Shown: positions 16,444 through 50,236, counted from the stretch's first letter. The stretch is 64,000 nt of DNA from Moniliella sp. 'wahieum' (GCA_003971905.1 RSEE01000081.1:248001-312000); one strand, 5' to 3'. Notes: generated by a model from the sequence alone, not told the origin. Translations and numbers: made by a program.

Positions 16444-16568
16444 CTTCGCAGCCTTCGCAACCTTCGCAACCTTCGCAATCTTCGCAATCTTCGCAGTCTT
16501 CGCAGTCTTCGCAGCCTTCGCAGCCTTCGCTTCGCAGTCTTCGCAGCCACAGTCTTCGCAGCCTTCGC
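16444..16568. repeat. 9-bp tandem repeat (CTTCGCARY)n, ~9 contiguous units plus degenerate ones
   Basis: Seen directly: cttcgcagc cttcgcaac cttcgcaac cttcgcaat cttcgcaat cttcgcagt... Confidence 0.9.
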
Positions 16569-19648: not shown

Positions 19649-20023
19649 GTTGGGAAACAGCGTGGAGAGCAAGGCAACAGTGGTGGTGGTTGTAAACACG
19701 GAGATCTGTCATGCCCAGAATGGCTGAGCGCCACGTCCGTGCGGCGGACGCGCGTTGCACCGAACCACATGACTCACTAGTCTTACCGGTAACCGTTACC
19801 GGTAACCTGGGCTCTGAGCGGACCCTTTGAAACGCACACGCCCAACGCGAGTAAACACTTCAAAGGGATGCGGCAGGAGAAAAGTACAAGACCGGTGGTC
19901 CGGTGATGAGCGGTGCAAAATCTCTATCTATTGGGTGTCCAGAAGAGGAGGTTTTCAAGACTTGGGCAGAAAAAAAGATAATAATCAACCACATTGAAAA
20001 AAATTAGGACGCCCATGTCGGGT

Positions 20024-20104
20024 CGAACGACGCAGGGGTCGAACCTGCAACCTCCTGATTACAACTAGTCGTAGTCAGACGCGCTACCATTGCGCCAGCC
20101 GTCC
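20024..20104 (-). tRNA. tRNA-Arg(ACG) with ~9-nt intron
   Basis: Reverse complement folds as GGACGGC/GTCGTTC acceptor, GCGC D-stem, TCTGA-CTACGA..-TCAGG anticodon arm and GCAGG-TTCGACC-CCTGC T arm. An oligo-T terminator follows (A run at 19997-20003). Confidence 0.93.
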
Positions 20105-23700: not shown

Positions 23701-24626
23701 GCCTGAGTCCTCCTGAAGCCTGAGGCCTGACCGGTGACGGCAGTGCTCGGTGCCTGAGACTGTGAGTACGATGTCCTGCCTATAGTACTCACTGAACTGA
23801 GTATTGGGACTGAGTACACTGAGTGTGTACTGAGTATCCGAGTAGCAGAGACGCAAGCATACGATACGGTGCACTCGCTTACCTCGCCCATCTCCCTCTC
23901 TTCAGGTTTCTGGCCTCAGGGCCTCAAGGCCTCAGGGGCCTCATCGACACCGCACTGGCATCGCCCAACGCGCACCCGCTACCCGACCACAGCTTCGTCG
24001 ACATGTGGTCGATGATCGATGATTGATGACGTCGATGACGTCTACCGGGAAAACAGTCATAGGACCGGGCCGGGGGGCTGTATCTTGGTCCGGTCTGTGG
24101 CCGCGAGCAAGTGGGCGCGGGAGAGCCCGGGTGGCCGGTGACCTCACCCTCCCCGCCGCAGGAACGAAGGAGCGCGAGCGCGAGGAAGCCGAATAGCGCG
24201 AATCGGATATCTGAGGCCAGCTCTACCCCCTGTGCCAGCTCCAGCGACAGATATGTGCTTTTTGCTGAATGTTAGACTGCGTCGTTAACACGCGTTGGGG
24301 CGTTCGCGTTACAGGCTACATGAGCATGATATCAGCACATCTGCTGCATCCCTCTTTCAGTACGTGTCTCTGTCCGCTCCGCCTTGCGGGGTAGACAGGT
24401 CGCTGTAAACATTGCGGGCCGTGGAATGCCGAACGCCGCGCATGGCACACAGCTGATGCACTACACCCGGGTGTTACTATAAACGCATTCAAATTTTACC
24501 CGATGCGGTTCCCCTCGCGCCTAACTTCCCCCTGCTAGAGCAGGCTACGCCCTGAGGTTCAGCGCTGAGGCTCAGCGCTCAGCCTGAGCCCGCTCCCGTG
24601 ACCCATGTCAGAACATATCAGCCGAA
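20702..24626 (+). repeat. Direct diverged duplicate of ~12714-16410 (GRDP gene plus upstream region)
   Basis: Colinear similarity from TAGGTTCGATAGCATCATCATGT to CCCATGTCAGAACAYATCAGCCGAA in both copies. Confidence 0.95.
20829..23087 (-). CDS. Glycine-rich domain-containing protein (GRDP/DUF1399 family), paralogue 2; frameshifted
   Basis: Same motifs as 12829-15090. Starts MPFDKKVFPPP and ends ...GGGGCGGC*. Confidence 0.88.
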
Positions 24627-26362
24627 TACGCGCCCCTGGCCAATTGGGTTCAATTCGCATTCGATCCGTTCGTTTCCGGATCAAGTTTCCCCTAGGTAGA
24701 GTAACCTGCAGAGCAACCTCTACACCTGTAGCATGTGGGTGAACATAATGAACGTTGATGCAGTACGTTGATGCATAATGTGCAGTCAAGGGAGCGTCTC
24801 ACATGACGTCACGCGTCACGCCTTACACGTTAGTACGCACGATTCTCGTCGTGCTGGTGGACACGGCCACTGCAGGCAGGAACAGGCCTCCAGGCGTCGG
24901 TCACAACATATGCCCCCCCCCCCCCCCCCCCCCGCCCAAACAAAGCAGAAGCTTGAATTTGAAGCCTCAGTTTCACCTTATGAATGAAGTCCACCGGTTA
25001 TTCTATACCACCGTTCTTATTTCCCCTCTCTCGGGCCTCCGACGACCATCAAGAAAGGGAAAAGAAAGAGGAAGCAATCCTGCACAAGGCTGGGTCCAAA
25101 GCTATGATGGAATGCTTGAATGTGTGCCTGCGGGCATGTTGGAAATCACGGTACAAGACAGTGTGGACTTGGAACATATGGTGGGCGGTGATATATGATA
25201 GACGATATATATATGGAAGAACGGTGTGGACTATAATGTACGGGAAACTGAACTCCCCATCTCTCACAGATCGAGGGGGGTATAGGGTCAACATGATAGG
25301 CTCTTGATGAGAAAAAAGGGATATGTATTCTCAAAGAAGCGGTGGAGCGCCCACCTCATCATCACCAGGGAATCCAACAAAAATGAGAGGAAGAGAAAAG
25401 AGTTGAATCCCTGCCAATTGCATTCTATCTTTCCCTTTGGACCTTCGTTGTTTACCCAAAAAAGGATGGAGAAGCATCGGTACCAAAAGCTGCCACAGTG
25501 GTGGGACGAAGCGGCCCTCTAGAGTTAGGATATATACCGACATCTTCTTTTTCAAGCATTTTAAGGTGCGAAGAGTTCGTATCGCGCCCAAAAAGCACAG
25601 TGGTACTGCGTTACAACAGATGAGATGCACTCCCTATTTACCAGTTTCGAAATGGGAAACGCCCTTCCCCTTCCAAGAAAACGATGATATGTTGTGCAAA
25701 TTATCGTCACATCTACAAGAGCACACCCTCCGAGAGCAAAACAACTTCCGGCGGTGGCACCGTGGAAATGAACGGGAAGACAAAAGTAAGGGCGACCCTC
25801 TGTTGTCTATACTGCGTTGTTTTGAATTCCCTCTGTTGATAACAGGAGAATGGTGTACTACTACTACTACCATGTTCTCATCTGAGGGTCACCTATACAC
25901 AGAGAGTTGTATTATATATAGTGCCCTATTCCTTATCATCTCTCAAGCTATAGTTGCCCCATCTCTCACTATTCTCAGCTATAAAAAAGCTGATGAGGCC
26001 AAAACGGCCTCGCCGACAGGCCAGAACGGCCTATGGGTTTCTTCCATACTGGATGAAGCTTGAAAGTGAGAATGGGTGTGGAACAGCGTGCTGCGCTTTT
26101 GATGTGATGGGCGACTGTTGATGCTGATCTATACAACGCACAAACGTGATTGTCCACTATACTTTTAGTTTTGTCCATTTGCGAAATGGCACAAAACAAT
26201 CTTTTTGCAGTCTATGGTTCCTTCTCTCGACTTTAATTAAGGCAAGAATCGGAACAACGGACGCAGTATGCATGCCGCCGATGAACAATGTCACTGCCAA
26301 CTTGGTGAAGTCACGCACAGCTCGATCCAAAGAAGGAAAGTCGCCTTTATGGGCAAAAGAGG

Positions 26363-26457: not shown

Positions 26458-27592
26458 TTGATGTATACGTATTGGTATATTGTTTTGGGGGCAGTTTCTT
26501 CTATCTCCTGGGTAGTTACTCGATGACGACTGACTGCCATCATCCTGAGGGATAATCATGCAAACTTGTCTTGGCAATATGAACACCCCAAGCAGTTTCC
26601 AGCATGTTTCGACGGACGTAGCTCGCGAGGATATGCGAATGAGCGTGTGGCAGACATCCGAGTGGTAATAAAACGCGTAGAGCGTATAGTTCTATTCAAC
26701 TTTTCTCCGACGTACTTATAGCACGCGTGCAGCCCTGCCGGCGCTGACAGGACGCGTGAAACGGTGGCTACGATGGCTTAGCACGACCAGCGGAACGGTG
26801 GAGGGAAGACGGTGGAACGCGCACCCAATTGAAGCCGAGCATAGATCCAGTGGTCTTCTACTTAATCATATATAGTTAGAGAGGGTTCATGCAGCACTCA
26901 CATGCTGTCCTGCCGCGCTCATTAATCTCATTTTCATACTATATCCAACAACACTCCTGACTCAGGAGTCACAGCCTCAGGGCATTGATGCATTCTATTT
27001 CAAGCCGAATGGCGGGGGTGGCAGAAGATCCTCTGACCTGCTGGCGACGCCACAAAAGAACTTGGTTTGTTGATCGTGTGGTACTCACCACAAACTATTA
27101 TACCTCTCACATGTCACAGGAATACTACTGCTACTACTATACTGGTAAAATGATATAGGACGGAGAAGGGGTCGATCGTCGCTTATGCGGGGAAAACGCC
27201 ATTTTCGTCGACTCAGTACTCATCCGGCTTGGGCCACCTGACGCAGCTATGAGACGCCTGAGACGCGTGAGACGCGTGAGAAAACTAGGAACAGACGCAC
27301 CAAAAATCATGTCAATCTTCTCCCACATTACTATTCCCCTCTATACTCTATACCCAATCAACCAGCACACGGAAAGAGAGCTATATGTGCTGAGAGGGGG
27401 GGATGATCGATGATCGATGACCTCTCGATACGGTTATCGAAAGCTTGATCGCCATGACCGGAACTACTTTTTGATTTGAAACAAGTTTATATAAAGGGTG
27501 TGACCCGTACAACTGAAAACAACACCCCAACCACCACCCACCCCACCACCCCACCACCCCCACTCCACCACCACAACTCACTACCACCGTCG

Positions 27593-31893: not shown

Positions 31894-33999
31894 CTGGGGA
31901 AGAAAGGGGTGGCGGGTGGTGGTGGTGGTGGTGTGGGGCAGGAGGGAGATGGATGGCCCGCGACTGAGTAAAGTGGGCCCCCTGCCACCGCCCAGCTACG
32001 AGGTAGACCTTATTTTGGGCTCCGCCGCGGCCACGCGACGCGCTTGGGACACTGGCGCCGTGCTGGCTCCTGAGCGCGTCGTTCCACACGCGCCCACTTT
32101 TGCGTGCAGCCCCAACCCTACTGTGCAGCCCGCCCGGAACATGTTGAAAGTATCATTTTGGATTTTGAACATCCACTTCTTGAGCTTCAAGCGCTGCTCC
32201 TGTGCTTGTCGAGTTTTTTGCGGGCGAAGTGACGACCAGTGCTCGCGAGTACTCAACCTATACTCAGTTCGAGTACGAGTGCTGAGTATGTGGAGAGTCC
32301 TGGGTATGCTCTTTGGAAGATTATTATGGGGCAGGATGGTTGCCACTTCAACAAAGCTGACTTCATATATTGAGCAGCACAGGCAAGAATCTTTGAAACC
32401 ACATTGTCCAACAAACGCCGACACTTCTGCCGCAGCGCATCACAGCTCCCCAAAGGCATCATTGTTGGCTATCGCGGCGCATGCATAACTAGCTGGGATT
32501 GGGCGTTTGGTTGAGACCTGAGGATCTGAGGGGCAGGATTGTACGAAGGGAATGTCGATGACCATCATTATTAAGCGCTGTTTTGTCTGGCCACAAAACC
32601 CAGTTTTTAGCACAAACTCCAAGATGATCGGGTCGGTTTAGGGATAGCGTTTCCCTGTCCCAGCCTTTTTAAGCTCTGTCAATGATATGGATGCAGTATC
32701 TGGCGGTGGGGCTTGCAGAAACCATATCTTGTGTTGTTTGGACTAAGCACTAAGTAAGTACTAATAATGCATCAGTATACCGGTGTAGTAGCAGAGTGTA
32801 GCCTAGTAGTAGTAAATGTAGTCCAACCCCATCTTCACACTCTGGCGGAGCACTCTCGCACTTCCGCGGTGTGTACATCAAAACCTCGTCAGACCGCGTC
32901 ACATAGAGGTCGCAAGCATGTGGCATCTATCTCTCTACTGTCCGTACCATCGAGATGTTACAAATGCAGCACTACTGAGAGTTACAGGCCATCGATCACC
33001 TGGGACACGGAACTACAAAACGTCACCCTCTATAAAACCATCCTCCGCAACAGCTATATCCCCTCTCGAGGTGAGGGTACCCTCTCTATCGTGCGTGTTC
33101 CTGTGCTATATTCCATCCCGTCACTGCATACTACTATAACCCATCCTTTCGGAACCGCACCCTGCCGCGCGTCTCGGCTCATTGCGCCTGTCGGCCCTTG
33201 CCCGGCTTCTCACTCTCGATCAGTGTAACAACTCTTCATTCAAACCTGCCCGCCTAATTCCGGTTCATGAAGTTTGAAGATGTCATTCTTGCAAAATCGA
33301 TTCTTGGGTATAGAGTCGAGATCTTCGTGGTCACATGTGGTGGCCTACACGATGGGCTTTGGGCCGAGGGACAATCGATTGCCCATAATGCCCGTGTTTA
33401 GTATATTTCTATCGCATTCTAACCCGTCCTACCCGCTCTCCCAAGGAGCTACTGGTTATCCCCGCCACCGTCACCAACCTCCCCCGATATCGCTCTTCTT
33501 CCATACGTCGCTACTGCGCCATCACTGTATTACAGAGGGCAACCTTCACCCTGTATAAAATACCAACCCTCTTGCGGAATGGGTTATTGAATCTGTGACC
33601 GAGTATGGGTCTCCAACGTATTACTTAATAGTATGTTGCTGTTAGCGTCTTTGTCGTCAAACGTTCTCCTCCCATACATCCCCCCCTACACCCCTGGCCC
33701 GCGGTTTCACAAAATGTAATCATTCTTCCATCAGATTGGTTAACCTCCTTCGTCTATCGCCCCTCCATCTGATGCCCTTTCCCATTTTCAGCGTTCCCGG
33801 TATGAGTGCGTTAACCCCCCCCCCCCCCCCCCAGTCCATCAGCCCGTCCCATGCTGCCGCCCTCCTACCCCTATACCCTCAACTCTCATCAGATCAACAC
33901 TTACAATATACGCATCCGTCACTCCCCCATATAAGTCCACACCCTCTCTGGGGCAGTTCATTCTCCGAATGACTTGCCGGATACGTTCGCAGTATAATC

Positions 34000-36900
34000 G
34001 GACTATGGAACGGCGTATAACGCGTAACGCGTAACGGAGGATGCACCGTTTCTACGGAACCCAAAGCGAGGCGGAGCGACAAACACATGCAACATGCAAT
34101 GCACAACGACTGTGACATGTGACATGTGAACCTATAAACACACCAGGTCGAGGCGAAGGGCTGTTGGTGGCGCTCTGTCGATCATGAAGTAGATCATCCC
34201 ATCCTATTCGTACTCTCGCCACTTCAAGACTTGAAGCTTGACTCAGTCTGGTGAGTACTGAGTACTGAGTACTGAGTGTACTGAACGTTGAACTCAGTAC
34301 GCAGTAGGACTCAGTTGATTACTCATATACTCATTTCCCCTGAGATTAGGGACTAGCCATTGGTCCTCAGGCTGAGGCCTCAGGGCCTCACGCGTCTTGT
34401 GCGCTCACACGCGTCACGTACCCCCACGCTTTTGAAAACGCGACACGCGTAACGCATAACGCGCGTCCCGCGTTAGTACTGAGTTTGGAGTACTTAGTGT
34501 ACTGAGTATACGGAGTACGGAGTACGGAGTACTGGTTATTGAGTTACTAGTTACTAGTTACTGACTAGTCAGTGCACTCAGAACACCCAACGCGCTGACG
34601 TTTGTGACCGTTGATTCAATAGGCAGTGCCGGCACCGACGAAGAACCGACGGAAGCGGGGCTGGCTCTGGAAGCTGGATAGTCGATAGCTGCGCGCATGT
34701 TCGCACAAACAAGTCCAGAATGGAGAAAATGGCAGTGTCGCGCTTCAGTGGGGGTGGTCCAGGGTGTTCTGTTCCCCCATATAACCTGGGTAAACATACA
34801 ACGCGCTCGTGGATGTCAAGCTTCAAAAAGGACATGTATCATGTGTGTCACAAGTCGGCCATTAGTAAGTACAACGACAGGATGGTCGATGGTATCGATG
34901 GCGAGCCTAGCGAGCCTCGCTTGCTGCGAAGGCGAGGGAGGCGGTGAGAGAGGCAGCTTATTAGCGCTTAAAGCCGGAAAAAAGCTGGGGTTTTTGTTAC
35001 GTACAGGGGTCGGATCTCATCCGTTTTGTTTTGTGCCCTTGTGGGCGGCGACTGCAATTGGGAAGGTGCGGCCTGTACTGCCTCCAACGGCACGGGAGGG
35101 GTCTGGGCCTGAATTGGTTCACATGCTACGTAGTGTGAGAAAATAAGATGCACATGATGCATGATGCATGATGCATGATGCGTGGTGTATGATACAATGA
35201 TCGATGATCGCTGAGTATTGAGTCAATGATCAATGCAGCGGTTACATACATTACAGGGATCGGTACTCGGTATGCGTATGAATTTCGAGACAAAGGCATG
35301 GGAGCCGTTATACTTTTGATACACAATGATTGTGACACGGGATGAAGACAAATAGTCATGCATGTCACCGGTTCCTGTGGACTAGCAAGGGACTACGTAG
35401 GGCTGTATCTCATCCATCTGTTTGCCACCCGCGCACCTCCTTTTTATCCGACCTGAGAATTTCACATCCATCGATTCAAGGAGCGATCATCGATTTCATC
35501 GACCATCGATCAGGTATTCGGTGACATGCAACATGCGACATGCGACATGCACGACACGCGATACGACTGTGACATGTGACGCGTGACATGTGACACGAGG
35601 AGCACGTGACCAGTGACTTGACCGGGTGCCTAAGTGATTAAGTGATTAAGCGGATTTGTGACGCATGATGCATGGATGATTCGGCGTGCACGATGCATGA
35701 CGCCACGTGATGGAGTGGCCATTGAATTATTGAATGCACGCGCTGCGACAAGCTGCGCCAACTGTGGCTGCTGTGGCGTTTTTGACCCTGTCGGCTCGTT
35801 AGGCATCAGGCGTTCCGCGTTCCGTGTTCCGCGTTCTGCGTTTAGGTCCTAGGATTCGGTCTCGGTACTCGCCAGGACATCGCAGGACTTGCCGCTGGCT
35901 CGACGTGCTCAGGCTTAGCACTGACCGGCTGACCGCTGTCTTTGGGTTTTAGCTTGGGATTCGGTAGGGTACTGGCCACAAGCCTACGGGACAAGCTTCG
36001 AACCTGGGCCCATCGCACTACATACATCTCGTCGAGCCGTGAGCGCGTGAGCGGAAGGGCCTCAGCGCCTCAGCACCTCAGCGCCCCAGCTGACCTCAAA
36101 TTTGGAGGCCAGAGAGACGAGGATGAGATGGATGAGTTCCCAGATCTGAGATCGATCATGTATGAGGCCGAGGGAGCCTGGATGAGGGGGTACACTGTCC
36201 CCATACTTACGCCCCCTCCACCAATTTCCCCCAAGAAGATGATCGATGATCAATACATCGATGAAACGCGTGGAATTAAGCGCTAAGCAGGTACCGCAAC
36301 GCGTAACGGGCGTAAGCCTACCTGCGTAAAGCCGCTGTCGGCCCACGCAATACATTCCTACCCTTTTCGGCCCTCTGCAGTCCCTAGTACAAGAGCCCCT
36401 TGCGCCTTTGCCTTACGCTGGAACCTGAGCTCCTGTGCCTCCGGTCTTATCGATCTTATCGGGCTTAGCGGTTAGGCCTTCGGCCTTCGGTCTGACCGGC
36501 TCACTCGCCATCGCTAACCCACTTCTCGATTCTTCCCGGTTGTACGCGGCAAGCGCCCCCGCGGTACATCATGGGTAACTATGTAACTGGTAACCGGTAA
36601 CCAGTAGCCGGTAGCCCGTTAAAAAGCAGCGTTCAACAAATTTCCTTGGCCCACGGTTCTCTTTAGACTCAGACTCAGATCTCTGTTTTCAGAATCTCAA
36701 CAGTAATTCAAAGTTGAACACGTTGAACATATTAAACTGCACGGACTGAACGTACTGAACGGTAACATCGCAGGGTCTAGACGAACTAGGGTCCCGCTGT
36801 TCTTGGTGCCGTATGGATCGACGCCTGGCATCTACATCCCATGCTGCATCTGCTACATGCCGCCAGCTGCGAGGAACAAGTGCGCTCAGCCCCTCAGGTA

Positions 36901-38520
36901 CTCAGGGACAGCACTGCGACAGCTGGCCAGTTTGGGGAAGACGTGAACTGGCAGCTGCTGCTGCGCCAGGCTGCACCTGTAATTTCAGCGGTTCAACGTT
37001 CAACGTTCAACGTTCAACGTGCATGAAAGAGGAACGTTGAACGATGGGACGTTGGCACGTTCAGATCGTGCTTCGAAGACCCAAGTCAGGCCCCTAACAT
37101 GCTAACACTTAAACGCGCCTCTGGGCTTAAGCGGTCTGCGCGGATGATCGATGAGGTCGATGAGGCCGAGTATCCGTCCAGCGCCCATTCCCTTGGTAGC
37201 ATGCACCGCGTTACGCTGCACGCGAACTGCTGAGCCGCAGTGCCTCACCGCCCACTACCTCGCAGGTCCCAGGCTTCAAGCTTCAGGCTGAACAAGAGGC
37301 CTATGCGCCTATGCCACGATGGGTAGTGTTCTGATGGGGGGTGCCCCTGACGCCGCAGCCTGGCGCAGCCCGCGCTCAGGCGCTCGAACTCAGTGCTTCA
37401 AGCTCCAAGCTTCAAGCTGTAAGCTGTAGGCTGTGAGTACTGTGAGTCGAGGGACGCGTTGATGGCTGCACAGTGCACAAGTTCATAATCAGCCACGTGT
37501 ACGTTGGTGGCGAAGTTGTTGCCCCCGTCGAACGGGGAGCTTGGATGCCGTCCACTTGGGTACTAGCAGGGATAAGTGGGGCGGACGCAGGACGCGGGAC
37601 GCGTGCCGCGTGAAGCGTGAAGCTTTTGAAAGGGACGTGCGAGAGATCTGATCGAAATCCAGGCGGCCTGGACCGAGGCACGGCCCGGCGCCCAGCCTGG
37701 TGCATGGCTGAGCAGTGGCTAGTGGCTGGGCATTACACGGCCGGAGTTATGTGACGCGTGACGCGTGACGCGTGATCATCTCGATCATCGTTCATCAATT
37801 GATGCCAACGATTAATGATTCGATGGAATGCGAGCGCGCCAGCATGCATGACTCACGCGTCACGCGTCACGCCTCCCACGCTGAGCCGCTCAGCTCTAGA
37901 TCTCACACCCACAGAGCTAGTGACAGTGACGCTGTGACGAATGTGGTTGAACGTTGATGCGTGATGCATGGTCATGATGCATGATGACTGACAGCACCAT
38001 GCCAGAGAAGCGTTATCAACACGTCAATTGCATGTCAATTCAATATTCAAGCCAGCGCAAGGATATACCCATCCAGACCCCAGGGGAGGCTGGGGAGGCC
38101 GAAAAGAAGAGAGCGTAGAAAGAAACCCCCGCAGCTGGGACCATGAATGCGAAAGGCTTCTTTCCTGTATAGCTAGGATCCTAAAACATGCGAGCAGCCA
38201 GAGTTAGCCGTTAGACGTTAGCGCTAGCGTTTAGCGCTTAGCGGTACCGGTTATCGATTATCGGTTGCCGATTGTCGACTGCTAGCATGTCAGCATGTCA
38301 GCGCTGAGGCACAGCGCTCTGCCTGTGGCCTGAGCGCTCGCTCCCACGGGTACCGGGTACGAGTTGCCGGCTGGGGCTGCGTGAATTTAGGCCTGTGCTG
38401 CCCTTTGATGAATTTGCGCACTTGAGACATCTATGATCGATGCCACCCGGTTACGACTTGGGCGTTACGCGTTACGGGTACAACGGCCGATGATCGATGG
38501 TCATGCATCGTGGATTGTTG
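34000..38520. repeat. Dense field of short 7-bp tandem repeats (T-N-A + 4-bp palindrome) in gene-poor DNA
   Basis: (TGACATG)n 34113; (TGAGTAC)n 34252; (TTACTAG)n 34544; (TGATGCA)n 35155; (TAACCGG) 36591; (TCAACGT)n 36993; (TGACGCG)n 37752; (TTAGCGC) ~38231; (TTATCGA) ~38250. Confidence 0.9.
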
Positions 38521-40351
38521 ACCGGTGATCGGGGAGTGACGGGCTACCAGCCTCGGCAACAACGCATGGCTGCTGGCCCTGTTGCTGTGTAAAATTCGGA
38601 AGGCTGACCATGTGCCAGGGGAGCAGCACATGTTCCCGTGTGAGGCAATGCCTGCGTCCCGCCCTGGCACCAGCTCAGCCATGGGGGACACGCGCTGATA
38701 TCGATAGCGCACCTGTCCTGCAGCTGTCGCATGTGGGCGCAGGCAGCAGCGCGCTTGCGGCTGGTGGGTGCGACAGGCTGGCCATGTACGCGGTGCGGCT
38801 GCATGCTGCATGCCCATGCCCCATGCACCATGTCCAAAGAACGGGTGTGCCAGGGTGCGCCACGTCACCCTTCATGCATCACGCTGCCGCTTTCACCGCG
38901 CCCACCTGGACCCCGCAGGCATCCCTGGCACCCCAGGACACACCGCCTGGGACCACGCTGTCTGCTCGATTTACTGTGCCATCGGCCGGTTGTCTTCGAT
39001 CTGCAAACAGAACGAGCGGCGGACAAGATTCCGTGGCTGACACAGCGCTGGTGCGCGGCAGGTGCTTGGCCACAGGGGCTGGCGGCGAGGCTGGCGCCCT
39101 GCCGGGTCGGATTCCGATTGGATCTGGGATGGCGACGAGACAGGGGAGGCGCTGGAGGGTACCCGCCTCAGGCTGTGGGGAAGGGGTTGACGACCATTAG
39201 TCACTAGTCATGCGTCGTGTGTGGCAGTCAGCGGTCCTGTACATAGGGGCGTCGGCCCCAAGATGGCTGCAGTGCCTGCGGTGCGGTCAGTTTTGCCGTG
39301 TGGGACCGGGGTGGTGCAGAGCCACCGACGGCGTGGGGGCGCCCAGGCGCACCGGATGCACCGGGGGGGCAGTGTGGGCTGCGGTGGCGGGCGCCTGCAG
39401 GGGTGGCCGGTGGCAGCGATCGCTTGGTGCGATCAACCGTTTCCCATCGCACGGTCATGCATCCGCCCATCAGCGCTCGGCAGCACCCGCCCCCTGGGCT
39501 GGCACGCTGCTGCGGGGACCGCGGGAGCAAGGCGCAAGGGGTACGTTGGCGCGGGCTCTTGGTCGGTCGGCCGTCGGTGGGGAGCTGCGTCACGCGTCCC
39601 TAACCGCTTCGGCGGCGCACCAGCCTCACACTTGCCCGTCACCGCTGCGGTGGCTGGGACGGTGGGTGCTGGGCAGTGCCGTGCGTGGGGGCGCGCGTGC
39701 TACGTAGGGCTGGTGCGGCTGGCCTGCCTGCTGCTTGCTGCGGGCGTACGCGCTGCTGCCGGCTGCTGCAGGCTGGCACCAGCACTCGGCCCTGGCTGGG
39801 CGCTGCGACGGTTGTGGCCTGTGGTCTGCTGGCTGGCCTGCTGGCCTGCGGACTGGCTGGGGTGTTCTGTCTTGTCTTGCCTGCACTCGGTCCAGCACCG
39901 GCACCTCCTTGCCTGGCCTGCCTACGCTTGTCTTGGGCGTTTCTTCGGTCTTTGCCGCTGCGTTCCATCCGCTCTGCCTTCTCCATCTCGCTTCTCTGCT
40001 GCCTCCGCCCCACCTCCATCCCCGCCGCCTGCCTTCCTGCCTCCTCCTCCGGCCGCTCCGCCCGCTGTGTCGCTCGCTCCCTCCGCCCCACCTCGTCCGC
40101 CTGCTTTCTGCTGCTGTCCCCCCACACCCGCGAGACCGGCTCAGGCACCCCGCCCACCCGCCCTCCCCTTCGCCTTCTTTCGCCGCCCCCCACACGCGCC
40201 CCGCCTCGGCTGCGGGCCCTGTTCTTTCTCCTGCTGCTGCTGCCGTTGAGCCCAGCCAGCCTGCTGTGCCCATTGCTCCTGCCGCTGTCCGTACGTAGCA
40301 CGCCCGATCGACGGCCTGCTCGCGTCACGTCGCGTGTCCGACCCTTCACCC

Positions 40352-43300
40352 ATGCCCCCCGCGCCCGAATACACACCCTACCAGATCGTTCGCCCACCAG
40401 CCCTACAAACGCCAGTTAGCCAGTCCACCGCGGCCCGATCATGCCTGCCGCCTGCTGTGCTCCCTGCCTTGTCGGGCCCCAGCTGGGACTCCTCCCCCTT
40501 TGGCCCGTCGTCCGGTCCCGCGGGTGCGCCTGTTGGTGCCTCCGCGTCCGAAGGCCCCTTGGGCCCACCTTACTCGGATCCTAGCACTGGGCCCAATGCC
40601 GTTGCCCCCCATACCGACCAATACTATTACCAGCGCACCTCCCCCACCCTTCCCCCCTGCGCGGCCCGCCCACCACTCGCCGCAGTGCACCCCAACTGCC
40701 GTCGCAATCGCAGACGCAATCGCAAGCGCAATCCCAGCCCCCGCCTGCCTCCCCCCCTACCTTCTCCTACTCCGACCCGGCCCTGCTCCAAATCAGCCGT
40801 CGCTCCACTACGACCAACGTCGGAGCCATCTCCCCTATCCATCGTTCCTCGGTCCCCTCGGTCTCTCTTCCTGCTCCGCCTCTGTCGCGCAGGCGCAGCT
40901 CCAGTACCAAGGCTCTCACCGGTGCCAAGCCCGACGTGGCTGCCGATCCGCATTCGACAGCTAGGGCGCCATCGGGTGGCCCGCGTCGTCGTTCGGTACG
41001 CAAGTCGCCAAGTACGGGTCCCACTGTCGCCGTGGTTCCCGTTGGCTCAAAGTCCATCGGAAAGTACATTGCGGCAGTATGATGATACGATTGTCACGAT
41101 GAAAAATGGCTGGCAACCCACAAGCCCGAGCTTGCCGATTCGTTTGATCAAGTGTCGGAATTGACGCTGGACGCGATGCTGCTGTACATTGATGATGCGT
41201 GGACCGCGGCTTGTCGTACAATACCGTGAGTCGGGTCAATTCAGCCCTAGCCGCGTACTTTAAGTTTCGTCTGAAGCGCGAATTGGCTGCCTGGGACCAG
41301 ATTCAGGACCTCAATGAGCGTCACGCAAAAGGAAACCCCTGTTTCTCGGAGCGGTACCGTGCTCGTACAATTCCATTTCCCGCACTGGCGGGGAACGCCG
41401 GCGCCGGCGCGACTCGGAGCAGGATGTGAAAGTCAAGCCCCTCCTTTATCCTGAGCTGGCCGTAGTCCTATCATATTTGCGCGAGACGATGGATGAGGTG
41501 CGTGTGAAACATCTGCCCCGCCCTACTCCCCCCGTCCCTCGTCCCTTGGCATTCTTACTGACTCATGCATGTCGTCTGTTCAGGACGCTATCACGAACAA
41601 CAAGTTCTTCCCGGGAGCTGGTGCTGTTTCTGTTTATGCCACCTTTTTGACCCTCAGCTACTTGCTCTGGACGCGCCTCGATGAGTTGCTCTTGCTCAAG
41701 TGGGAGAACATTTCGTTCAGCGACTACACTGGCAAGTTTGTCTCGCCCGAGGCTACTACGAAACTGTTGAAGGGTACGCTCGGTCTCACCGATGACCCGG
41801 CAGCGCTGTCGACCCAAACTACACACGCCTACCCCGACCGCCGTGGTCACTCTACCCTGGCGAGAAAATAACGATCGGCAGCCCAAGACGTACTGTCTCC
41901 AGTACCCAGGCCGAAAAGCCAACGCTGGATCCCGCTGGCACCATTACGCGTTGGCCCAATTTTGTGTCCGGCTCAATGGCAACCAGCCGCTGGAACCCAA
42001 GTTCCTCGTTTTTCCCTCCTTCAATAAGACCAACCTCTATGCTCCGCATTCACGCATGTATGGGACCAAGTTGCTTGACCAGATGAAAGAACTCTTTCGT
42101 CTCGCCGGTCTGGGCACGTCGAGCGGGCCTTCTCTCTCTCTCTCTCTCGGTGGAGCGGGCGTGCCGCCGCAAGGTGCTTTGGGCCGTTCCTCGCGCCCAG
42201 GTTCGCTGGGCGAATCTCCTGACTTGGAGGGAGATTATACCCAGCTCAGCGCCTTCGCAAGGGGGGGTGATCGATGGTTTGCTGCAGGGCAGTCGGTATG
42301 ACTCACCTGATGGCGCCGCATGGGCGGTCTGGTGGGGATGATGGGTTGTCGCAGGCCTCGATGAACAGCTTCCTTCACATGAGGGACAGTCGAGGAGCCG
42401 GCCGATGCTTCTTCTGCAACTTCGCCGGACCCAATGCGAGCGGGCGGGAGGAAGGCGGGCTTCAGGACGCAACTTGCCCCGGCGTGCAGCCTCCTGCGGC
42501 GATTCAGCACGCGGGCCAGCAATAACTCCACGCTTCGGTTGGCTCGGGCGTGACGGATGCGTCGCTGAGCCCCGAGGAGGCCCAGCTACCGGCTCAGCCG
42601 CCTAACCCGCTGCCACCTCACGGCGCCCCAGCCTCTACGGGGCCAGCGTACTGAGCCACCTCTTCCGAATGCACATCTCGCCGCGGGCACTACGGCTCCT
42701 ACGGCGTTTTCCCCCCACCGACAGCGACACGCGCTTTCCTTCCATCGTATACCATGCGCCAGTCCGATCCTGCCTTGGCATCCAACCCCCTTGTTGGACC
42801 AGGCAACGCGCGTCTGGACCGTCGGCTGGGTTGTATGGCCCCTCTCCTACCCCCCTCGGACCCGGTGCAGGCGCACATGTTTGTCGATCCCAATTCGCCC
42901 CCTCCGCCTACGTCCACCGGTCATCCCGCTGGCCCCGGCCCGGTTCCCACGTCTGCGCCTGCCCCTTCGGATCGAAGGGTGAGCGTTGACCCGATGGGGG
43001 GGATGAGTGTCTTGCCCCCCCACACGGTGGATCGGCGGCTGTCCTTGGGTCCTACTCCCCCGGGTTTGCCGCCCATTGCGGGAGCCGGGCCGCAAGGGGG
43101 CGGCACGATGCCCTCGCCGGTAGGCAGTCGACCGGGTCCGCGTCAACGCCCTGGACCGTACTATTACGATCCTGTTCTCCGCGTCAAGGCGATGGCTACG
43201 GGATCTACCCGCCGCCGGTCCCCCGTCCCATTTCCCCTGCGAGTCACATGGCGCACGTGCCCGGCCACATGAACCATGTTCCGCCCCATGTGGGCCATGT

Positions 43301-43493: not shown

Positions 43494-44880
43494 CCCCCAT
43501 TCTTTCCCTTTCCCTTTCCTTCTTTGACCCCCTCTGGCCCTTTAGCGGGCCTGAGGCGAGCCCCCTCCTGATCCCTGTCCCTGCCCTGCTCTTTTCCGGT
43601 GCCGTCAGCCACGCCTTCGGTTGGAGCAGGTGGACCAAGTGTGCATGTTCCCTACCCCGCACACGTCTTGACATGGTTACGATTTACGAGCCTCATGTTT
43701 CCTGGTGCGAAGATCTGCGTGCGCCCTCTTTGGTTTTGTCTTTCTCTTTTTTTTTCTCCCCTTCGCCCTTCACTTGCCCGTTGCCCCTTGTCCCTTGCCC
43801 CTTGTCTCTCTTGCCCCTTTCCCCTTGCTCCATGCCCCTTACTCCTTGCCTTTCTTCCGTTCCTCTTTTGTTCCTCTTTTGCTCTTTGTTTGATCGCTGT
43901 TCTCTTCCTTCCCTTGTTTCTCGCCTACCAAATCATGCTTTGCTCTGCCCCGCCGTTTCCCGCTAGTCGCTCTATGACGGTTTGTATGGATTTTTTTTAC
44001 CCGCCTACCAGCCTGCGCATGCCCATCACCAAACCAAGGTTTTACTAGTGGTGGCAGTGACTCCCGACTCGCAAGGGGGGAGAGACAACTATAGGAAGAC
44101 TGGCCGTGCGCGCAGCGAGGCGCGATATGGAGCCGTGACATGCGGGAAAGCTACACTGAGTTACGAGGGGGGTGGGAGGGAAGTGGCGCGGTGCGGTGCG
44201 GCAGTGGGCCATTGAATATGGATGGACACCGAATTCATCGGACTGTGGCTCTCTAACCATCCGTCGGTAACACGCCACACAGTTCTATGATCTCCTATCT
44301 CCCCACTGTGGCACGTTCCCCCCCGATGCGCGAACCTTGGTGGCGAATCTGGTGCAGTGCAGCCTACCCGCCTTCTGAAGTCTGTGATCTGAGGCCTACT
44401 GAGATGCACTGATGGCCGATGCTTCAGGCGATGGAGCGTATGTGCGATTTCGTCAACGTTCACCACTACGCCCGATCCAATCAATACATGCAACACCTCC
44501 GCATTGCGCCGAGCCATCCTCCTTCCACACCTCAATCATCTTCAAGATTGGAATCGAATCAGATATGCACAGGAGCAACGTTGGCATACATGTGATCGGG
44601 GGGCAGTTGACAGGCACCTACACTGGCCAAAGCAGAAAGCGTCTCTTGGAACTTGACGGACTTGCCTTGATCGATGGCTAAGGTTATGGTTGCGACTCGG
44701 CCAGCCCAACATACAGAAACAACTACAGGGCAAGCACAAGAGCGAGGCAGGTATCATATTTTGGTGTGGGGGATCCACGGTCGAGGACGGGCCACAAACT
44801 GTGGCCGACCAAAGTAAGGAGATGAGTGTATCCTAGGGGGACGGCATGAGTGACATGGGGACAGAAAGCGTATTCAACAG

Positions 44881-45493
44881 TTACTCCTGGTCAATAACGA
44901 CCGTCTCGAGGCCCTTGAACGAGGTGATGCCAAACACGGGCGTGGCCACAACGTAAAGCTTCTCCTTGGCGTCCTCATCGTCATTGCGCTTGCGCTCCAG
45001 ACGCACCCGAATCCGGCGCGGGACCGACTTGACGCCCAACTTCCAAATCTCCTCGTTGAGCTTAGGGTCGATGCGAACGTCCTTGACGCTCATGGCGCGC
45101 TGGGCAAAACGGACAACCTCCTTGATGGCACGAGGGGCCGTCTTCTTGTCTTGCATGCGGAAAACACGCTTGGCCAAGTGGATCGTGTACTCGCGCTACC
45201 AACCAAAACAAACGAAACAAGTTAGCCAATCGGGCACACCCAAAGCAGACCAAGCGATGTCGTAATGCGCACAGGGCAAAAATAGCCAAGCGAAGGGCAA
45301 ATCTGCCCAACGCTCTCGACGATTCCCCCCTAAGGGGGAAGGGTACCGGCCTCTTACAGAGACCGGGACCGAGGCGTCGACCGGCAGACCTTCATGCATC
45401 TCGGGCAAAGGACGGCATTCAGAGTCCCAGCAGGATACTCACGGTCACGACGTCCTTGAGGACGGAACGCTGTGTCTTCTTCGTAGGAGCCAT
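44881..45493 (-). CDS. RPL31: 60S ribosomal protein L31 (eL31); exons 45443-45493 and 44881-45195
   Basis: [28 protein letters not shown]...[13 protein letters not shown]...[43 protein letters not shown]. Intron GTGAGT...GCTAAC...TAG. Confidence 0.97.
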
Positions 45494-47670
45494 GGTTGAG
45501 TGAGGTACGGCCAGAGGTGGATGGGTGCGGGAGACAACCTGCTCGGATGTCCCAGGGCCAATAGCCAACCGTGCACATCCGCTCCGCAACCCCACGTTTT
45601 ATTGCGCCGGCTGTTTTCGACACGGTCGGTTGTGGGCATGTTAGGGTTGACCCCTTCTTGGCCGGGTCAACAAGGGTACATTTCAATAGTTGATGATCAT
45701 CGATCTCATCGATTATCGATCAGCCTGCTCCCTACTATGGTGTCTCAGAACCCACGTGTCCGTCCACCACTCCTTTGTGGGTGAAGCTACTATATATAGG
45801 AGCGGTGAAGCTATAGGAAGCAGCGCAGTGGGGGCTTCCTTAAACGTTGTCAAGTAATTGTAACCCATCATTGTATTGTCCACCTCCAAGTTTCGTTGAG
45901 TGCACCAAACTTCACTCTAACATCTCAACCACACTCAGAGAGTGCTTCGGAGGTCTCCACTTTGAGGGCATGCCCTCATATGACAAGGCCGGGGCGACAT
46001 AGTTGGTGACAAACCAGACTGTAAATCGCAGAACGTCAGAGGCAGTTGGGAAGACCTCCTGCTCACATATACGGCCTTTTTGTTGACTGCTGGGACTCTA
46101 TATGTTTACAGCGCCGCAGGGATGCAGCCAAGGCCTGTGTTCCTCTCTCGTTGTGGCCATGATTAAACGCGCCGGATATTACGCCATCAGATTGCCAGGA
46201 TATTGGAACACTGGAAGAACTTGTTGAAGAGTCTCATGATGGGCGGCGTCCATCTGAACGCTCACACAACGCACAACTGCACAGTATCTACCTGCACTAT
46301 ATCTGGTTTAGAAAATTGTCAGAGAGTCCCCCGACCTGCTGTGGTGTCATCACTGGCATCTTTTGAATGAATGGGCACGAGCTGATCACAAAGGCAGACC
46401 GAGCGAGTTTGATGCGGTACATGCCTTGACGGACTCCTGGTTTAGAAGTTTTTCCAAAAACGGTGTACACCTCTAATACTGTTCTATACACTGCCACTAC
46501 TCCGAAGACCGACGGGTCATGCTGATGGTGATGATGCGATGATGAACCAATGATGCCATGTTACATGAGCGGCTCAGAGCGCGCATGAACATACTCACGT
46601 AGAGAACAATACTCTGACCGTTGTTCACGCTGCGCGAGCGATTCGAACACATATTGTCATGCGCAACGTATTGGACTCTGTTTTTTCGCAACATCAGGCA
46701 GTCTTGTATTGCTTTTGTGCTTGCAAAAGTTACTTCTGGATACGTTTGCTCTACTTTGCACGTAATACGTTGTTTTCACTTAAATGTTTGCACATCACGC
46801 AAAAAGGCCCTACTGGCGGATTCAATCGTGTGGCCATTTGTCCGTGCACTCAACAAGACTGAACTCGATTTAATGAATCAAATGACACTACTACTTTGTT
46901 AGGCTTGATGCACAGGGCCCACAGAGAAAACACACACCTAGTATAAAGTCCTTCGGCGGAGCACACAGGTTCGCATTATTGATGATGGGAACCCTAACGA
47001 CGTATGCGAGATTCAATACCCCGCTGTTTTGTGGGGGGCATGGCAGCGGTCAGATACTATGAGTAGCAGCTGCCCTATAGCCTGGCTGGGCATCTGGAAG
47101 AAGCGAAGCACATTCTGCAGACCAACGTAGTGCTGGTGCTAGTGACCAAGCTAGTGATACAAGTGATGGGCGATGGTCCACCTTCTACGGGCAGTCGGCC
47201 AGTCATGTCATGAAGTGACATGTGAAGATGTGAAGCTGGAAGCTTGAAGCTCCCCGGCCAGCGGCCACACACAGACAGGCAGTGCCGCCTTGGCGCCAGT
47301 GCCGACCCATCGTCTTCATCGTCTGGGCACGAGAACGCAGGTGGGGGTGGAAGGTTGCCTCCGATAAGGGTCTTCGGCTTCGTCCGTCGCAGGGAGCCAG
47401 TGACTGTAGCTTGAAGTGATGCATGAGGATGGTCTGACCGATGACTGTCAGGTGACTAGTACGTACTACCGGCTGTAAGCTGCACCAGCCTGGATCTGGC
47501 AGGTGCCGGACTTTTTTTTTGTTCGGCAGTCCGGAACCCACCCTGGGGGCCACCAGCCCAACCATCCCCACTCACCTCCACCACCCATCCGGCGCCAGCC
47601 AGCCCCATCCTTCTCATCCCCCCCCAACCACCTCGTCTGTATCTCGCCGCCCCACCCCTGCCACTGCCCA

Positions 47671-50236
47671 ATGGCAGGTACCCGCTCCATCCCGGCTCCT
47701 CGCCCTGTCCCTGGCCCCAGTGGCCGTGGCGTTGCTGCTCCAGGTGTCCGTCCCACCGCCACCCGCACCCGCGAAGTGTCAGGCCACCAACAGCCCCCCT
47801 GGAAGAGCAGCTTGGACCTTGTTTGGTCTTACTCTCGCTCCCAGGCTTTTTATGGGGAGAACACTGGCACGTCTCCCTCCTTTGTCGAGCGCTTTGCCCT
47901 GCCTGCCGCCTCAGGCACGTCTACTCCAGCCGATTCAGAAGCCGAAGGACCTTCCCTCACGTCAGATTCTTACGAATACTCGGACGAGGATGAGGATGAT
48001 GATCTTTTTCTTGACGGAGACGAGGAGGATCAGTACAGCGACGAAGAGTACGACAGCGACGAGTCCCGAAGCGATTCGGACAATGACGATGCTGGTGATT
48101 AACGCCCGTAGAGAGCGTCGCCGCTTCCCACGCGAGTGATACTGCGATTCCAGACCGCAATATCCCCGGCAATGCGCAGTCCCAATGGGCTTCGGAGCAG
48201 CTTCCCTCCAACGCACTCAAGCCTGTGCCTGATCGGCGGTCACGCGGTCGCTCGGTACCTGGACTGAGTAACCTCAGTCGCGCTGCCTTGCAAGCTCGCA
48301 ATGCCAAGCTCCGCACTCTCGAAGATGATGATACCAACTCGGACGATGGTCGGGGTCGGAGATTGAGTGGCTCCCGCTCCCGCTCCCACTCTCGCACTCG
48401 TACTGCTACAGGCCCAACCGCCCCTTCGGCCGGTCTTCCCCCACCTAGTCTTTCCCCGGGGGGATCAATTCTGTTGCCAATGGAGGATCCTCCACCCCTC
48501 ACAGCGAAGCGCTTCTTCGAATGGGCGAAAGTCGAGTCGTTCTCGTACCCGAGGAAGCCATTCTCGTGGGCGGGGGACTCGGGGGAGGCGAAATGGATCA
48601 GCGCGCTTTAGCCAGGCCCGTGCCCATCAGGCAGAAGATGGCGATGCGGACAAGCCTCCATTTTTGGTTACCGACATTCCTAATGGAGAGAGGGATTGCC
48701 CACCACATACCAATGGGCGCACTTCAGCCAATTTACTGCGGGCAGCTGTACTGAAGCGCAATGGTAACCCCTCCTCTGACACCACCAAAGGAGTGGCGTT
48801 CCCTGCGGGAAGGAGCACCTTTCTTCAGAGCTGGTTCAACACCTTGAATGCGGTGATGGGCGTCGGCATCCTTGCCACGCCGTGGCATTCAGCTATGCCG
48901 GCTGGATCTTGGGGCCGCTGCTGTTCTTGGTGTGTGGGCTGCTAACCAGCTACACGGGCAAGGTTCTTTTGGCATTATGGCCCGCAATGGCCGGCTTCGC
49001 ACGTACGCCGACATTGGAAGCTATGCGTTTGGGCCGCGCGCGCGTGCGTGGGTCAGCACGCTTTTCTGCCTTGAACTGTGGGCGGTCTGCGTGGCACTCG
49101 TTATTCTCTTTGCCGACAGCCTCCACGCCATCTTCCCCAACGGGCCTGGGAGCAACACTTACAAGGTTTTGTGCTTGCATTGGTGCTCCAACCATCTTCC
49201 TCCCGCTCAAGCTCTTTCGCCAGTCAGTGTCGTTGGCATTCTCTCTGCCTTTACTCTCGTGGTGGTAGTAGTGGTGGACGGGTTTATCAAACCTACGTCT
49301 CCGGGTAGCCTGCATCAGTGGAACAGCAGCGCGTCGGCGGTGCCCGACTGGATGCGTCTGCCGTTATCCTTTGGCTTGATCATGAGTGGCTTCAGCTCTC
49401 ACCCCGTTATCCCCAGCCTCGCGCGCGACATGCGCGAACCCAGACGCTTCCCCTCTATGCTTAACCGGGCTTATGTGACGGCGACAATCCTGTATCTCAC
49501 CATGGCTGCTGCCGGTTACGCCATGTTTGGCCGCTCGGTGAGCGACGAGATCACCAAGGACCTTGCCCAGACCCCTGGCTTCCCCGAGACGTTCAACCGC
49601 ATTGCCGTCTGGCTCATTGTCGTCAACCCCTTGTCCAAGTTTGCCCTCGCATCTCGTCCTATCATCAACACTTTCGAGGGCACGTTGGGAATCGAAGAGC
49701 CTCATCCCACCCATTCCACGCACTCCCAACCTCCCCTCCTGCAAGCCCACATTCCTACGGATCCCTCTCACCAGACTCAGATCAGTGCCCGCAACCTGTA
49801 CCGGCGCTCTCTCCAACACATGTTGGTCCAGCTCCAAAGAAAAGGATCACCCACCCAATCCAAGAAGTCGTTCAGCTGGGACTTGCCCCTTCCCGCCACA
49901 GCTGGGCAAACTGTGACCTCGCCGCTTCTCATGAACGCGGATCAATCTCCATCAGCATCCGAGCCACGCTGGCATCGCCCGGCTCGCATTGCGGTCCAAG
50001 TAACTCTGGCTGGCCTGATTGTCTTGACGGCCATCGTACTGCCCGGGTTTGAGAAGACGATGGCTTTCCTCGGCTCGTTCCTCGTGATCACGACCTGTGT
50101 CCTGGGCCCTCTCTTGGCCAACTTGAAGCTATTTGGTCACGAGATGAGTTGGATGCGGATCGCTGGTGATGTGGCCCTGCTGACCGTCTCGGCAGTGGCG
50201 GCCATTGTGGGCACGATTTGGGCCTTTATCACTTAG
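47671..50236 (+). CDS. Vacuolar amino-acid transporter, AVT1-like (Aa_trans family); frameshifted
   Basis: N-terminal SSLDLVWSYSRSQAFYG and acidic tract. GRSTFLQSWFNTLNAVMGVGIL, FSYAGW, LRTYADIG.YAFG, FCLEL, SFGLIMSGFSSHPVIPSLARDMREP, NPLSKFALASRP, MAFLGS. Confidence 0.9.

Follow-up and report, generated by a model that had tools for sequence, protein, structure and literature searches.

What builds the short 7-bp tandem arrays that crowd the non-coding DNA between positions 34000 and 38520 of the 64-kb stretch of nuclear DNA studied here, and what rule do they follow? We refer to this whole stretch of 64,000 bases as the window, and all statistics below come from it, apart from those of the external controls. 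A first reading made from the sequence alone (the sequence-only reading) had described the units as T-N-A plus any 4-bp palindrome, which we call the grammar. We show that the repeated block behind this grammar is a 7-bp odd palindrome, and we give a probability of roughly 0.5 to the reading that a lineage-specific, T-N-A-centred process of templated insertion, followed by decay, produced the arrays, and that they are not a binding-site code.

Arrays with a period of 7 bp are in large excess

In total, 47 exact arrays of at least two copies of a primitive 7-bp unit were found. When all units were counted there were 49, compared to 3.3-4.5 expected from Markov simulations (50 each at orders 1, 3 and 5); enrichment over such a background had been named beforehand as a check, and within the window it is clear. 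Units consisting of TNA plus a 4-bp palindrome accounted for 23 of the 47 arrays, against 2.7% by chance (binomial p = 7e-24), and 36 of the 47 lay within one mismatch of the grammar (28% expected). Symmetry around any centre pair was seen in 25 of the 47 units, and the centre pair was T..A in 23 of these 25. At every one of the 17 loci that the sequence-only reading had listed, one or more units fit the grammar.

Furthermore, we counted joins in which a 4-bp palindrome links two T-N-A triplets (TNA-pal4-TNA). Joins with the same N on both sides occurred 85 times, where 2.1 were expected. Complementary-N joins, which create 10-bp perfect palindromes, occurred 10 times against 2.5 expected; such palindromes had been thought a frequent feature, but next to the 85 same-N joins they are a minor one. 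The cores made fairly even use of 15 of the 16 possible 4-bp palindromes, AATT being absent, and showed no half-site preference. The impression of many cores was therefore correct, although their number is 15 and not about 12. Because these 15 cores lack a half-site preference, a single binding factor cannot explain the pattern, as had been argued before.

Of the 64,000 bases, 39,780 fall in open reading frames (ORFs) of at least 150 amino acids; we call the DNA outside these ORF-free. Among 24,023 ORF-free bases, period 7 was the mode of all exact arrays, with 36 observed and 1.1 expected, and periods of 10 bp and above were nearly empty (period 10: 1 versus 0). One shared period had been claimed; 7 bp is indeed the commonest, but periods 5, 6, 8 and 9 are likewise in excess. 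Copy numbers were low, ranging from 2 to 4.3 units, and most arrays had two copies. The excess of period-7 runs of 10, 11, 12 and 13 bp was roughly flat (+88, +44, +59 and +46), which fits longer arrays that have decayed by substitution and not a birth size of 10 bp.

In addition, five arrays with a period of 13 bp were present (4131-4155, 17808-17834, 19783-19807, 24552-24579 and 38218-38243), where none was expected by chance. Four of the five join a 7-bp unit to a 6-bp unit of the opposite orientation, for instance TTACCGGTAA + CCG, and those at 4131, 19783, 24552 and 38218 combine a TGA-type with a TCA-type unit.

The repeated block is a 7-bp odd palindrome

The repeated block has the form xyTNAy'x', in which y'x' is the reverse complement of xy, and it is centred on the N of T-N-A and set head to tail. 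In any such chain the junction y'x'xy is always a 4-bp palindrome and Ay'x'xyT always a 6-bp palindrome. The palindromic core and the A....T hexamer are thus consequences of the block rule and not independent features.

The array boundaries followed the same rule. Among the 23 grammar arrays, 12 started 2 nt before the T (p = 2e-5) and nine ended 2 nt after the A. Likewise, 14 of 20 symmetric (quasi-palindromic) period-7 arrays in ORF-free DNA opened or closed on an odd palindrome, compared to 2/7 expected (p = 1.5e-4). Palindromic symmetry was confined to period 7 and stayed at chance level at periods 5, 6, 8 and 9. Of the two alternating symmetry centres described earlier, the N of T-N-A is therefore the operative one, as the 12 array starts indicate, whereas the A....T hexamer follows from it arithmetically.

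Added copies appear mirrored around the T-N-A centre

To characterize the elementary structure, maximal period-7 runs were sorted by length, and for each run it was tested whether the terminal 7-mer was an odd palindrome centred on T..A. Runs with 3 to 9 matches that ended on such a 7-mer numbered 10, 6, 14, 8, 5, 2 and 1, respectively; the expected numbers were 2.5, 0.9 and 0.1 at 3-5 matches and 0.0 at 6-9. The mode lies at five matches, which corresponds to a 12-bp run [xyTNAy'x'][xyTNA] followed by unrelated bases (14 versus 0.1 expected). We identified 22 structures of this type with five or six matches. As the smallest run covers 12 bp and is then followed by unrelated bases, the added copy would be a copy mirrored around N and not a plain duplicate.

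Near-copies of the block pointed in the same direction. To the right of a perfect odd palindrome, 37 of 59 differences fell at positions 6-7, and to the left 36 of 58 fell at positions 1-2, where 2/7 were expected in both cases (p about 1e-7). Moreover, 12-mers in which a 2-nt spacer mirrors the repeat end distal to T-N-A were found 87 times (0.44 expected), and the proximal type 12 times. The mirrored-spacer rule held for the 5+2 form only (22 versus 4.9 expected), while the 5+3 and 5+4 forms were absent (0 versus 1.2 and 0 versus 0.6). A hallmark of template switching is thus present, namely new bases that are the reverse complement of the neighbouring arm, as seen in the outer-position bias and in the 22 structures. 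In the 12-bp structures, only the T..A pair pre-exists as an arm, and the step is fixed at 7 nt. The sequence-only reading had proposed fold-back or template-switch synthesis at 6-bp palindromes; an inverted-templating step is supported by the outer-position bias and by the 14 runs where 0.1 were expected, but the 6-bp palindromes are not its operative centre.

Three simpler schemes were also considered. Plain 7-bp duplication with random mutation is disfavoured by the bias of the differences towards the outer positions, and 5-bp duplication with P nucleotides of variable length is ruled out by the absence of 5+3 and 5+4 forms. Duplication of the 3-bp TNA with 2+2 leftover transposon bases predicts runs of 10, 17 or 24 bp (3 modulo 7), lengths that do not occur among the 23 grammar arrays. 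This last scheme would also give constant cores, but 15 were seen, and the excess at 10 bp comes without a geometric fall-off.

Paralogous spacers differ in their arrays

The window contains a tandem segmental duplication of about 8 kb, with copies at about 12.8-16.4 kb and 20.8-24.6 kb and a spacing of 7990-8240 bp. Each copy carries a GRDP-like gene. Identity between the coding parts is 96-98%, whereas the paralogous spacer, about 1 kb long, has diverged far more, with about 20 indels of 2-106 bp between the copies. Copy A of this non-coding stretch (15468-16330) has arrays at 15542, 15645, 15769 and 16291, and in copy B (23387-24650) the lag-7 identity is 0.326. Compared to copy A, copy B harbours extra segments of 16, 14, 15, 7, 10, 16, 35, 106 and 27 bp, many of which (those of 7, 14, 15, 16, 27 and 35 bp) consist of grammar units. 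Two arrays, TCGATGATCGATGAT and GTGACCGGTGACC, are common to both copies and sit at matching positions amid substitutions.

A putative young event lies at 23415-23439. Here TCTGATA of copy A corresponds to CCTGAGATC TCTGAGA TCTGATA in copy B; the extra block, TCTGAGA, equals TCTGATA in mirrored form, which matches the prediction of the model. A 27-bp insertion found in copy B only (24552-24583) consists of GCTSAGC and CCTSAGG units in both orientations with a period of 13. Furthermore, GGTGAGT is present in three units in copy B and in 1.4 units in copy A, and in one stretch the two copies have different cores but keep T-G-A in the 7-bp register. The comparison shows arrays that have been gained, lost and re-cored quickly and that then decay by point mutation.

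Two further features were noted around the duplication. On the minus strand at 20024-20104, ARAGORN predicted a tRNA-like gene with an undetermined anticodon, a sequence found only upstream of copy B. A scan for terminal inverted repeats (TIRs) gave several colinear 14-nt inverted matches between 12470-12690 and 17610-17805, which points to copy A being flanked by an inverted duplication of about 200 bp.

Distribution of the arrays and composition of the densest tract

The interval 34000-38520 makes up 7% of the window, and within it fall 23 of the 47 arrays, among them 13 of the 23 that fit the grammar, so that its description as the densest interval was correct. Tandem Repeats Finder reported 26 period-7 rows there, and the lag-7 identity was 0.358 compared to about 0.25 at other lags. 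The arrays had also been described as nearly absent from recognised coding sequences. In agreement with this, the DNA outside ORFs of at least 150 amino acids, 38% of the window, contains 19 of the 23 grammar arrays; the remaining four are in ORFs without a Pfam match, three of them where the two paralogous copies differ by indels. The term 'pervasive' was an overstatement, since at least one TNA-pal4-TNA hit was found in 14 of 20 ORF-free segments and one long segment (44046-47455) lacks the signal. Density among the ORF-free segments ranged from 0 to 8 per kb, and it was highest in long spacers adjoining ORF starts.

The densest tract covers about 4.5 kb, and its only ORF of at least 150 amino acids (34682-35143) has no Pfam match. 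It consists mostly of intact and decayed 7-bp arrays, with 7.6-8.0 TNA-pal4-TNA hits per kb. A search of 33000-39500 against Rfam gave no match. It includes TAACGCG x2.7 (34018-34036), a run of 7k+5 form, and TGACATG x2.7 (34111-34129), which reads as the blocks TGTGACA TGTGACA TGTGA. At 34252-34306, TGAGTAC x3.7 is followed by TGAACGT and an inverted TCAGTAC copy, which together form an inverted pair (DNA fold z -2.84). Further downstream are TTACTAG x3.0, seen as three AGTTACT blocks (34542-34562), and TGATGCA x4.1 (35153-35235), which continues in the 7-bp phase through TGATGCG, TGGTGTA and TGATCGA units. A mixed TGACATG / TGACGCG array at 35568-35595 is followed by GATGATC x2.0 (36238-36251) and by GGTAACC x2.0, which passes into decayed AGTAGCC and GGTAGCC units (36589-36613).

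The array GTTCAAC x4.3 at 36991-37046 has an inverted partial array 7-16 nt downstream (DNA fold z -4.42). Another inverted pair of arrays spans 37751-37872 and comprises TGACGCG x3.6 (37751-37775) and TCACGCG x2.9 (37853-37872) with 77 nt between them; 18 nt are 100% complementary and the DNA fold z is -4.63. CATGATG x2.0 (37973-37986) and TTACGCG x2.1 (38462-38476) follow. Directly downstream, at 38529-41164, long ORFs overlap on both strands; they have a GC content of 63-64% and no Pfam match in any frame.

Outside the densest tract, an imperfect TGAACGT array at 1018-1057 is broken by CTTCAAG CTTCAA, and TGAGGCC x2.3 lies at 1567-1582. At 4131-4171, the period-13 unit ACCCTGAGGCCTC x1.9 is followed by CCTGATGCA x2.1, and the period-13 array at 19783-19807 contains the 10-bp perfect palindrome TTACCGGTAA + CCG (DNA fold z -3.01). 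The run GATGATC GATGATC GATGA at 27402-27420 has the 7k+5 form, and TGAAGCT x2.3 is followed by CTTGAAG CTTGAA at 58698-58728. The longest tandem array of the window is a 9-bp array of GCCTTCGCA with about 15 copies (16442-16568), in which one position varies systematically (GCA / ACC / ATC / GTC); it falls outside the 7-bp grammar.

We also looked at folding of the arrays. At the three loci where an array has a nearby inverted partner, single-strand folds gave z values of -4.6, -4.4 and -2.8. In contrast, the pure direct array TGATGCA x4 (35150-35215) folded no better than its shuffles (z +0.35). A repeat strand that folds more stably than matched sequence is therefore a property of the inverted pairs only and not of the direct array.

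Heptamer repeats outside the window

As a control, we used metagenome contigs matching the exact (TGAACGT)3.4 pattern (more than 121 contigs), together with viral contigs. Many of the metagenome matches were long bacterial-type arrays of one unit family, others were isolated, and the grammar with many cores did not show up in the sequence around them. In 265,882 flanking metagenome bases there were 61 seven-bp arrays, of which 11 fit TNA plus a palindrome; eight of these 11 had the seeded ACGT core and three had another. Same-N hits with non-ACGT cores numbered 22 per 298 kb of metagenome flanks, compared to 75 per 64 kb in the window. In the viral contigs, three palindromic units were found at 13, 10 and 3 loci (26 in total) and scrambled controls at 3, 16 and 0 (19 in total), numbers which are small and come from viruses, a weak proxy for fungi. 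Taken together, these controls indicate that the palindromic grammar with many cores is not a general property of heptamer repeats.

Some of the metagenome contigs (L002, L006, L049, L052, L072, L086 and L098) carry long bacterial-type arrays with a constant TGA followed by three or four variable bases, e.g. TGAAGGT, TGAGCGT, TGAACGT and TGAATGT. In L002, L003, L072 and L086 the TGA arrays adjoin different heptamer arrays of the GAGAACC/GAGAACT type. On one 72-kb contig with 47% GC (L053, 3987-4024), TGAATAT x2 runs into TGAACGT x3 in the same phase, a core switch like those of the window, but isolated.

A proposed templated-insertion process and its alternatives

The reading that we favour, templated insertion centred on T-N-A with subsequent decay, can be put in terms of an elementary event. 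A templated insertion beside T-N-A would add 7 nt, of which y'x' reverse-complements the dinucleotide preceding the T and the remaining five re-copy xyTNA, so that N becomes the mirror axis of the new copy. If such events recurred at the sites thus regenerated and units were also gained and lost, this could give arrays of 2-4 units, switched cores and inverted array pairs, and spacer DNA would lengthen over time through such insertions. Since T..A is required, the step is fixed at 7 nt and the block boundaries have dyad symmetry, the process would start when an activity that is itself dyad-symmetric and prefers T-N-A breaks or nicks the DNA. Repair would include short strand-switch or fold-back copying on an inverted template plus direct re-copying. 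From the run excesses, we estimate about 200 past events in 24 kb of spacer.

Going further, it is possible, though we regard it as tentative, that this lineage has a novel dyad-symmetric, T-N-A-preferring DNA-breaking activity whose repair writes mirrored 7-nt insertions and builds spacer DNA de novo. The agent might be a transposase of the hairpin-forming kind, domesticated or still active, or else some other nuclease.

Several observations weigh against the templated-insertion reading. All of it rests on a single 64-kb stretch, and we infer insertion, not deletion, from the run structure and from one clear paralog difference without an outgroup. In seven of the 23 grammar arrays the length is an exact multiple of 7 and the bases on both flanks are unrelated, and these seven fit plain duplication of an existing palindrome as well as mirroring. 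Eleven of the 47 arrays are non-palindromic, with at least two mismatches from the grammar, and more than one process is possible. The 3.4-kb ORF-free stretch at 44046-47455 shows no lag-7 signal at all. In the same ORF-free DNA, other periods are in excess as well (period 5: 31 versus 18; period 6: 20 versus 4.6; period 8: 14 versus 0.4; period 9: 13 versus 0.1). On the mechanistic side, schemes based on breaks, hairpins, fill-in, P nucleotides and fold-back were tried on paper, and none yields the product without an unsupported step. There is no microhomology for the returning copy strand, as the base before the block never matches in the 22 structures. Since no protein reads 'any palindrome', the symmetry must come from DNA templating, and a fold-back with a 1-nt loop is sterically implausible.

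The arrays might instead reflect ordinary microsatellite dynamics, in which near-self-complementary 7-bp units expand or persist through slipped-strand hairpins. The change in unit number between paralogs (GGTGAGT, 1.4 versus 3), the decay by substitution, the excess of short tandem arrays at all periods from 5 to 9 and the strong folding of the inverted array pairs (z -4.6 and -4.4) would all be expected in that case. However, slippage should be rare at two copies, which is the commonest array size, and it accounts neither for the sharp peak at period 7, with almost nothing at 10 bp and above, nor for the lack of symmetry at periods 5, 6, 8 and 9. The direct array TGATGCA x4 gains no stability over its shuffles (z +0.35), and in the viral contigs palindromic heptamers were not generally preferred (26 versus 19 loci). 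The T..A centre (23 of 25 symmetric units), the block phase and the differences at the outer positions are left unexplained. We thus consider this explanation unlikely, and share the earlier view that ordinary slippage is insufficient. Footprints of excised DNA transposons, either of the PIF/Harbinger type or of a hairpin-forming hAT- or Transib-like type whose repeat visits build the arrays, would give dyad-symmetric block boundaries with a central T..A, mirrored 2 nt resembling P nucleotides, and arrays in spacers that often flank the 5' ends of ORFs. Yet none of the 151 ORFs scanned in the window has a transposase domain, and a scan of the window for TIRs with target-site duplications of 2-9 bp returned nothing relevant, its one hit with a 7-bp duplication being at chance level and off the grammar. 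The use of 15 cores excludes leftover element termini, mirroring occurs almost only distal to T-N-A (87 versus 12), P lengths other than 5+2 are absent, and about 200 events per 24 kb would require a very active element, so that we rate footprints as rather improbable.

A selected cis code, be it sites for dimeric proteins, nucleosome-excluding or shape elements, or frame-independent stop signals, gains from the 10-fold spread of density among ORF-free segments, with the top values in long spacers by ORF starts. T-N-A can moreover be read as the stop codons TAA/TGA or their complements, and each 7-bp step shifts the frame by one. Nevertheless, neighbouring units share the same N, which places stops on one strand only, and palindromic cores are irrelevant to stop codons. 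Turnover is fast, with positions not conserved between paralogous spacers (about 20 indels), the 15 cores have no half-site preference, and the decay spectrum is that of unconstrained DNA. A selected code is accordingly improbable in our view, and the shape-read chromatin or regulatory code that had been put forward at first finds no support, given the fast turnover between the paralogous copies. Finally, an artefact of sequencing, basecalling or assembly is hardly credible, since TCGATGATCGATGAT and GTGACCGGTGACC are found at matching positions in both duplication copies amid substitutions, coding DNA is avoided (19 of 23 outside long ORFs) and the arrays show graded decay.

Host and gene content of the window

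The window is eukaryotic nuclear DNA, and its genes are ordinary ones. Among them are those for an Aa_trans transporter, Ebp2, an ERCC1/Rad10 homologue, an RRM protein and a BAR/PH protein, as well as a GTPase, an AAA_11/12 helicase and the two GRDP-like genes. At about 50% identity, the transporter ORF (48857-50236) matches proteins of Ustilago, Sporisorium, Moesziomyces, Violaceomyces, Tilletiaria and Exobasidium, and its best match reaches 57%. As the nearest proteins belong to Ustilaginomycotina at about 50% identity, the host is placed in this group, as a member without a close relative in the protein collection searched. The guess of an Ustilago-type lineage thus agrees with the closest proteins. 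It had come with the statement that U. maydis has abundant intergenic heptamers, on which literature searches gave no paper. Two poly-C tracts were also noted, one of 25 bases at 91% (24913-24937) and one of 18 bases exact (33815-33832).

Implications

If the templated-insertion reading is true, one mirror-and-repeat rule at T-N-A would explain a large share of the spacer DNA of this genome; roughly one in seven positions of the densest tract keeps the 7-bp register beyond chance. It would represent a site-specific signature of small insertions, distinct from slippage, Top2-type duplication and classical quasi-palindrome correction, and an example of how spacers could grow and short promoter palindromes arise without selection or transposon cargo. 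Should a novel activity indeed be at work, about one event per 100 bp of spacer would have taken place, and the signature grammar could be used to map where in the genome that activity works.

There are also practical consequences. Motif finders will report the arrays as 'palindromic regulatory motifs', e.g. ACGCGT, ATCGAT or ATGCAT, and for spacer alignments in this lineage, indel models must allow mirrored insertions. A fungus with a small genome as host makes the phenomenon directly testable.

Comparison with known systems

In the open literature that was searched, no account of repeats of this kind turned up, either for smut fungi or for the nuclear genomes of other fungi. The nearest described processes each share one or two features with the arrays, and none shares all. 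Intergenic heptamer arrays of bacteria reportedly include the cyanobacterial STRR and the G-rich heptamers of Xanthomonas and Nostoc, and this type was also seen in our metagenome contigs L002, L006 and L072. They have in common with the window arrays the period of 7, the intergenic position, a frequently constant TGA with variable neighbours and foldable inverted pairs. However, the bacterial arrays are long, belong to one unit family and follow no any-palindrome rule, whereas those of the window have 2-4.3 units and 15 cores and are eukaryotic nuclear.

Among transposons, PIF/Harbinger elements duplicate a T-N-A/TWA target, and hAT and Transib elements use a hairpin chemistry that leaves P nucleotides. 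Target duplications and footprints of this kind resemble the arrays in the T-N-A target, the short direct duplication and the short inverted additions templated by the flank. In contrast, the mirror axis in the window is the N of T-N-A and not a broken end, the additions are one-sided with a fixed length, and no element or transposase is present within the 64 kb.

The stagger of topoisomerase II (Top2) is 4 nt, and we know of no fungal enzyme with a 7-nt stagger. According to the portion of the report available, trapped Top2 in yeast gives duplications via filled-in staggered breaks (bioRxiv 10.1101/2020.05.03.075358). A dyad-symmetric cut of this kind gives a tandem duplication of fixed length, and boundaries that are symmetric about the site centre are seen in the window too. 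Here, however, the length is 7 and not 2-4, the new copy is mirrored and not identical, and the centre is T-N-A.

In the mitochondrial genomes of Fusarium, palindromic microsatellite-like repeats have been proposed to be mobile elements, as stated in the accessible part of that study (PMC7218506). Like the window arrays, these repeats are palindromic, lie in fungal spacers, go along with indels and differ from one close relative to the next, again within what that part covers (PMC7218506). They differ in being mitochondrial, and the 7-bp T-N-A rule was not seen in the part of the study at hand (PMC7218506).

In rad27-deleted yeast, 21 template-switching loci have been described with quasi-palindrome correction, palindrome elongation and amplification, going by the sections of the report at our disposal (PMC5677150). 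As in the window, bases are copied there from the opposite arm, which turns an imperfect palindrome into a perfect one, and switch events occur together with insertions that short direct repeats mediate, with amplification as a possible later step, according to the same sections (PMC5677150). In the window, by contrast, the arms consist of a single T..A pair in place of an imperfect inverted repeat of several bp. Work on highly transcribed yeast DNA is said to provide another example of template switching at quasi-palindromes, the process described by the Ripley model. Unlike quasi-palindrome switching, the process recorded in the window has a step of always 7 nt coupled to a direct 5-nt re-copy and a centre that is always T-N-A, and its products accumulate as tandem arrays over whole spacers.

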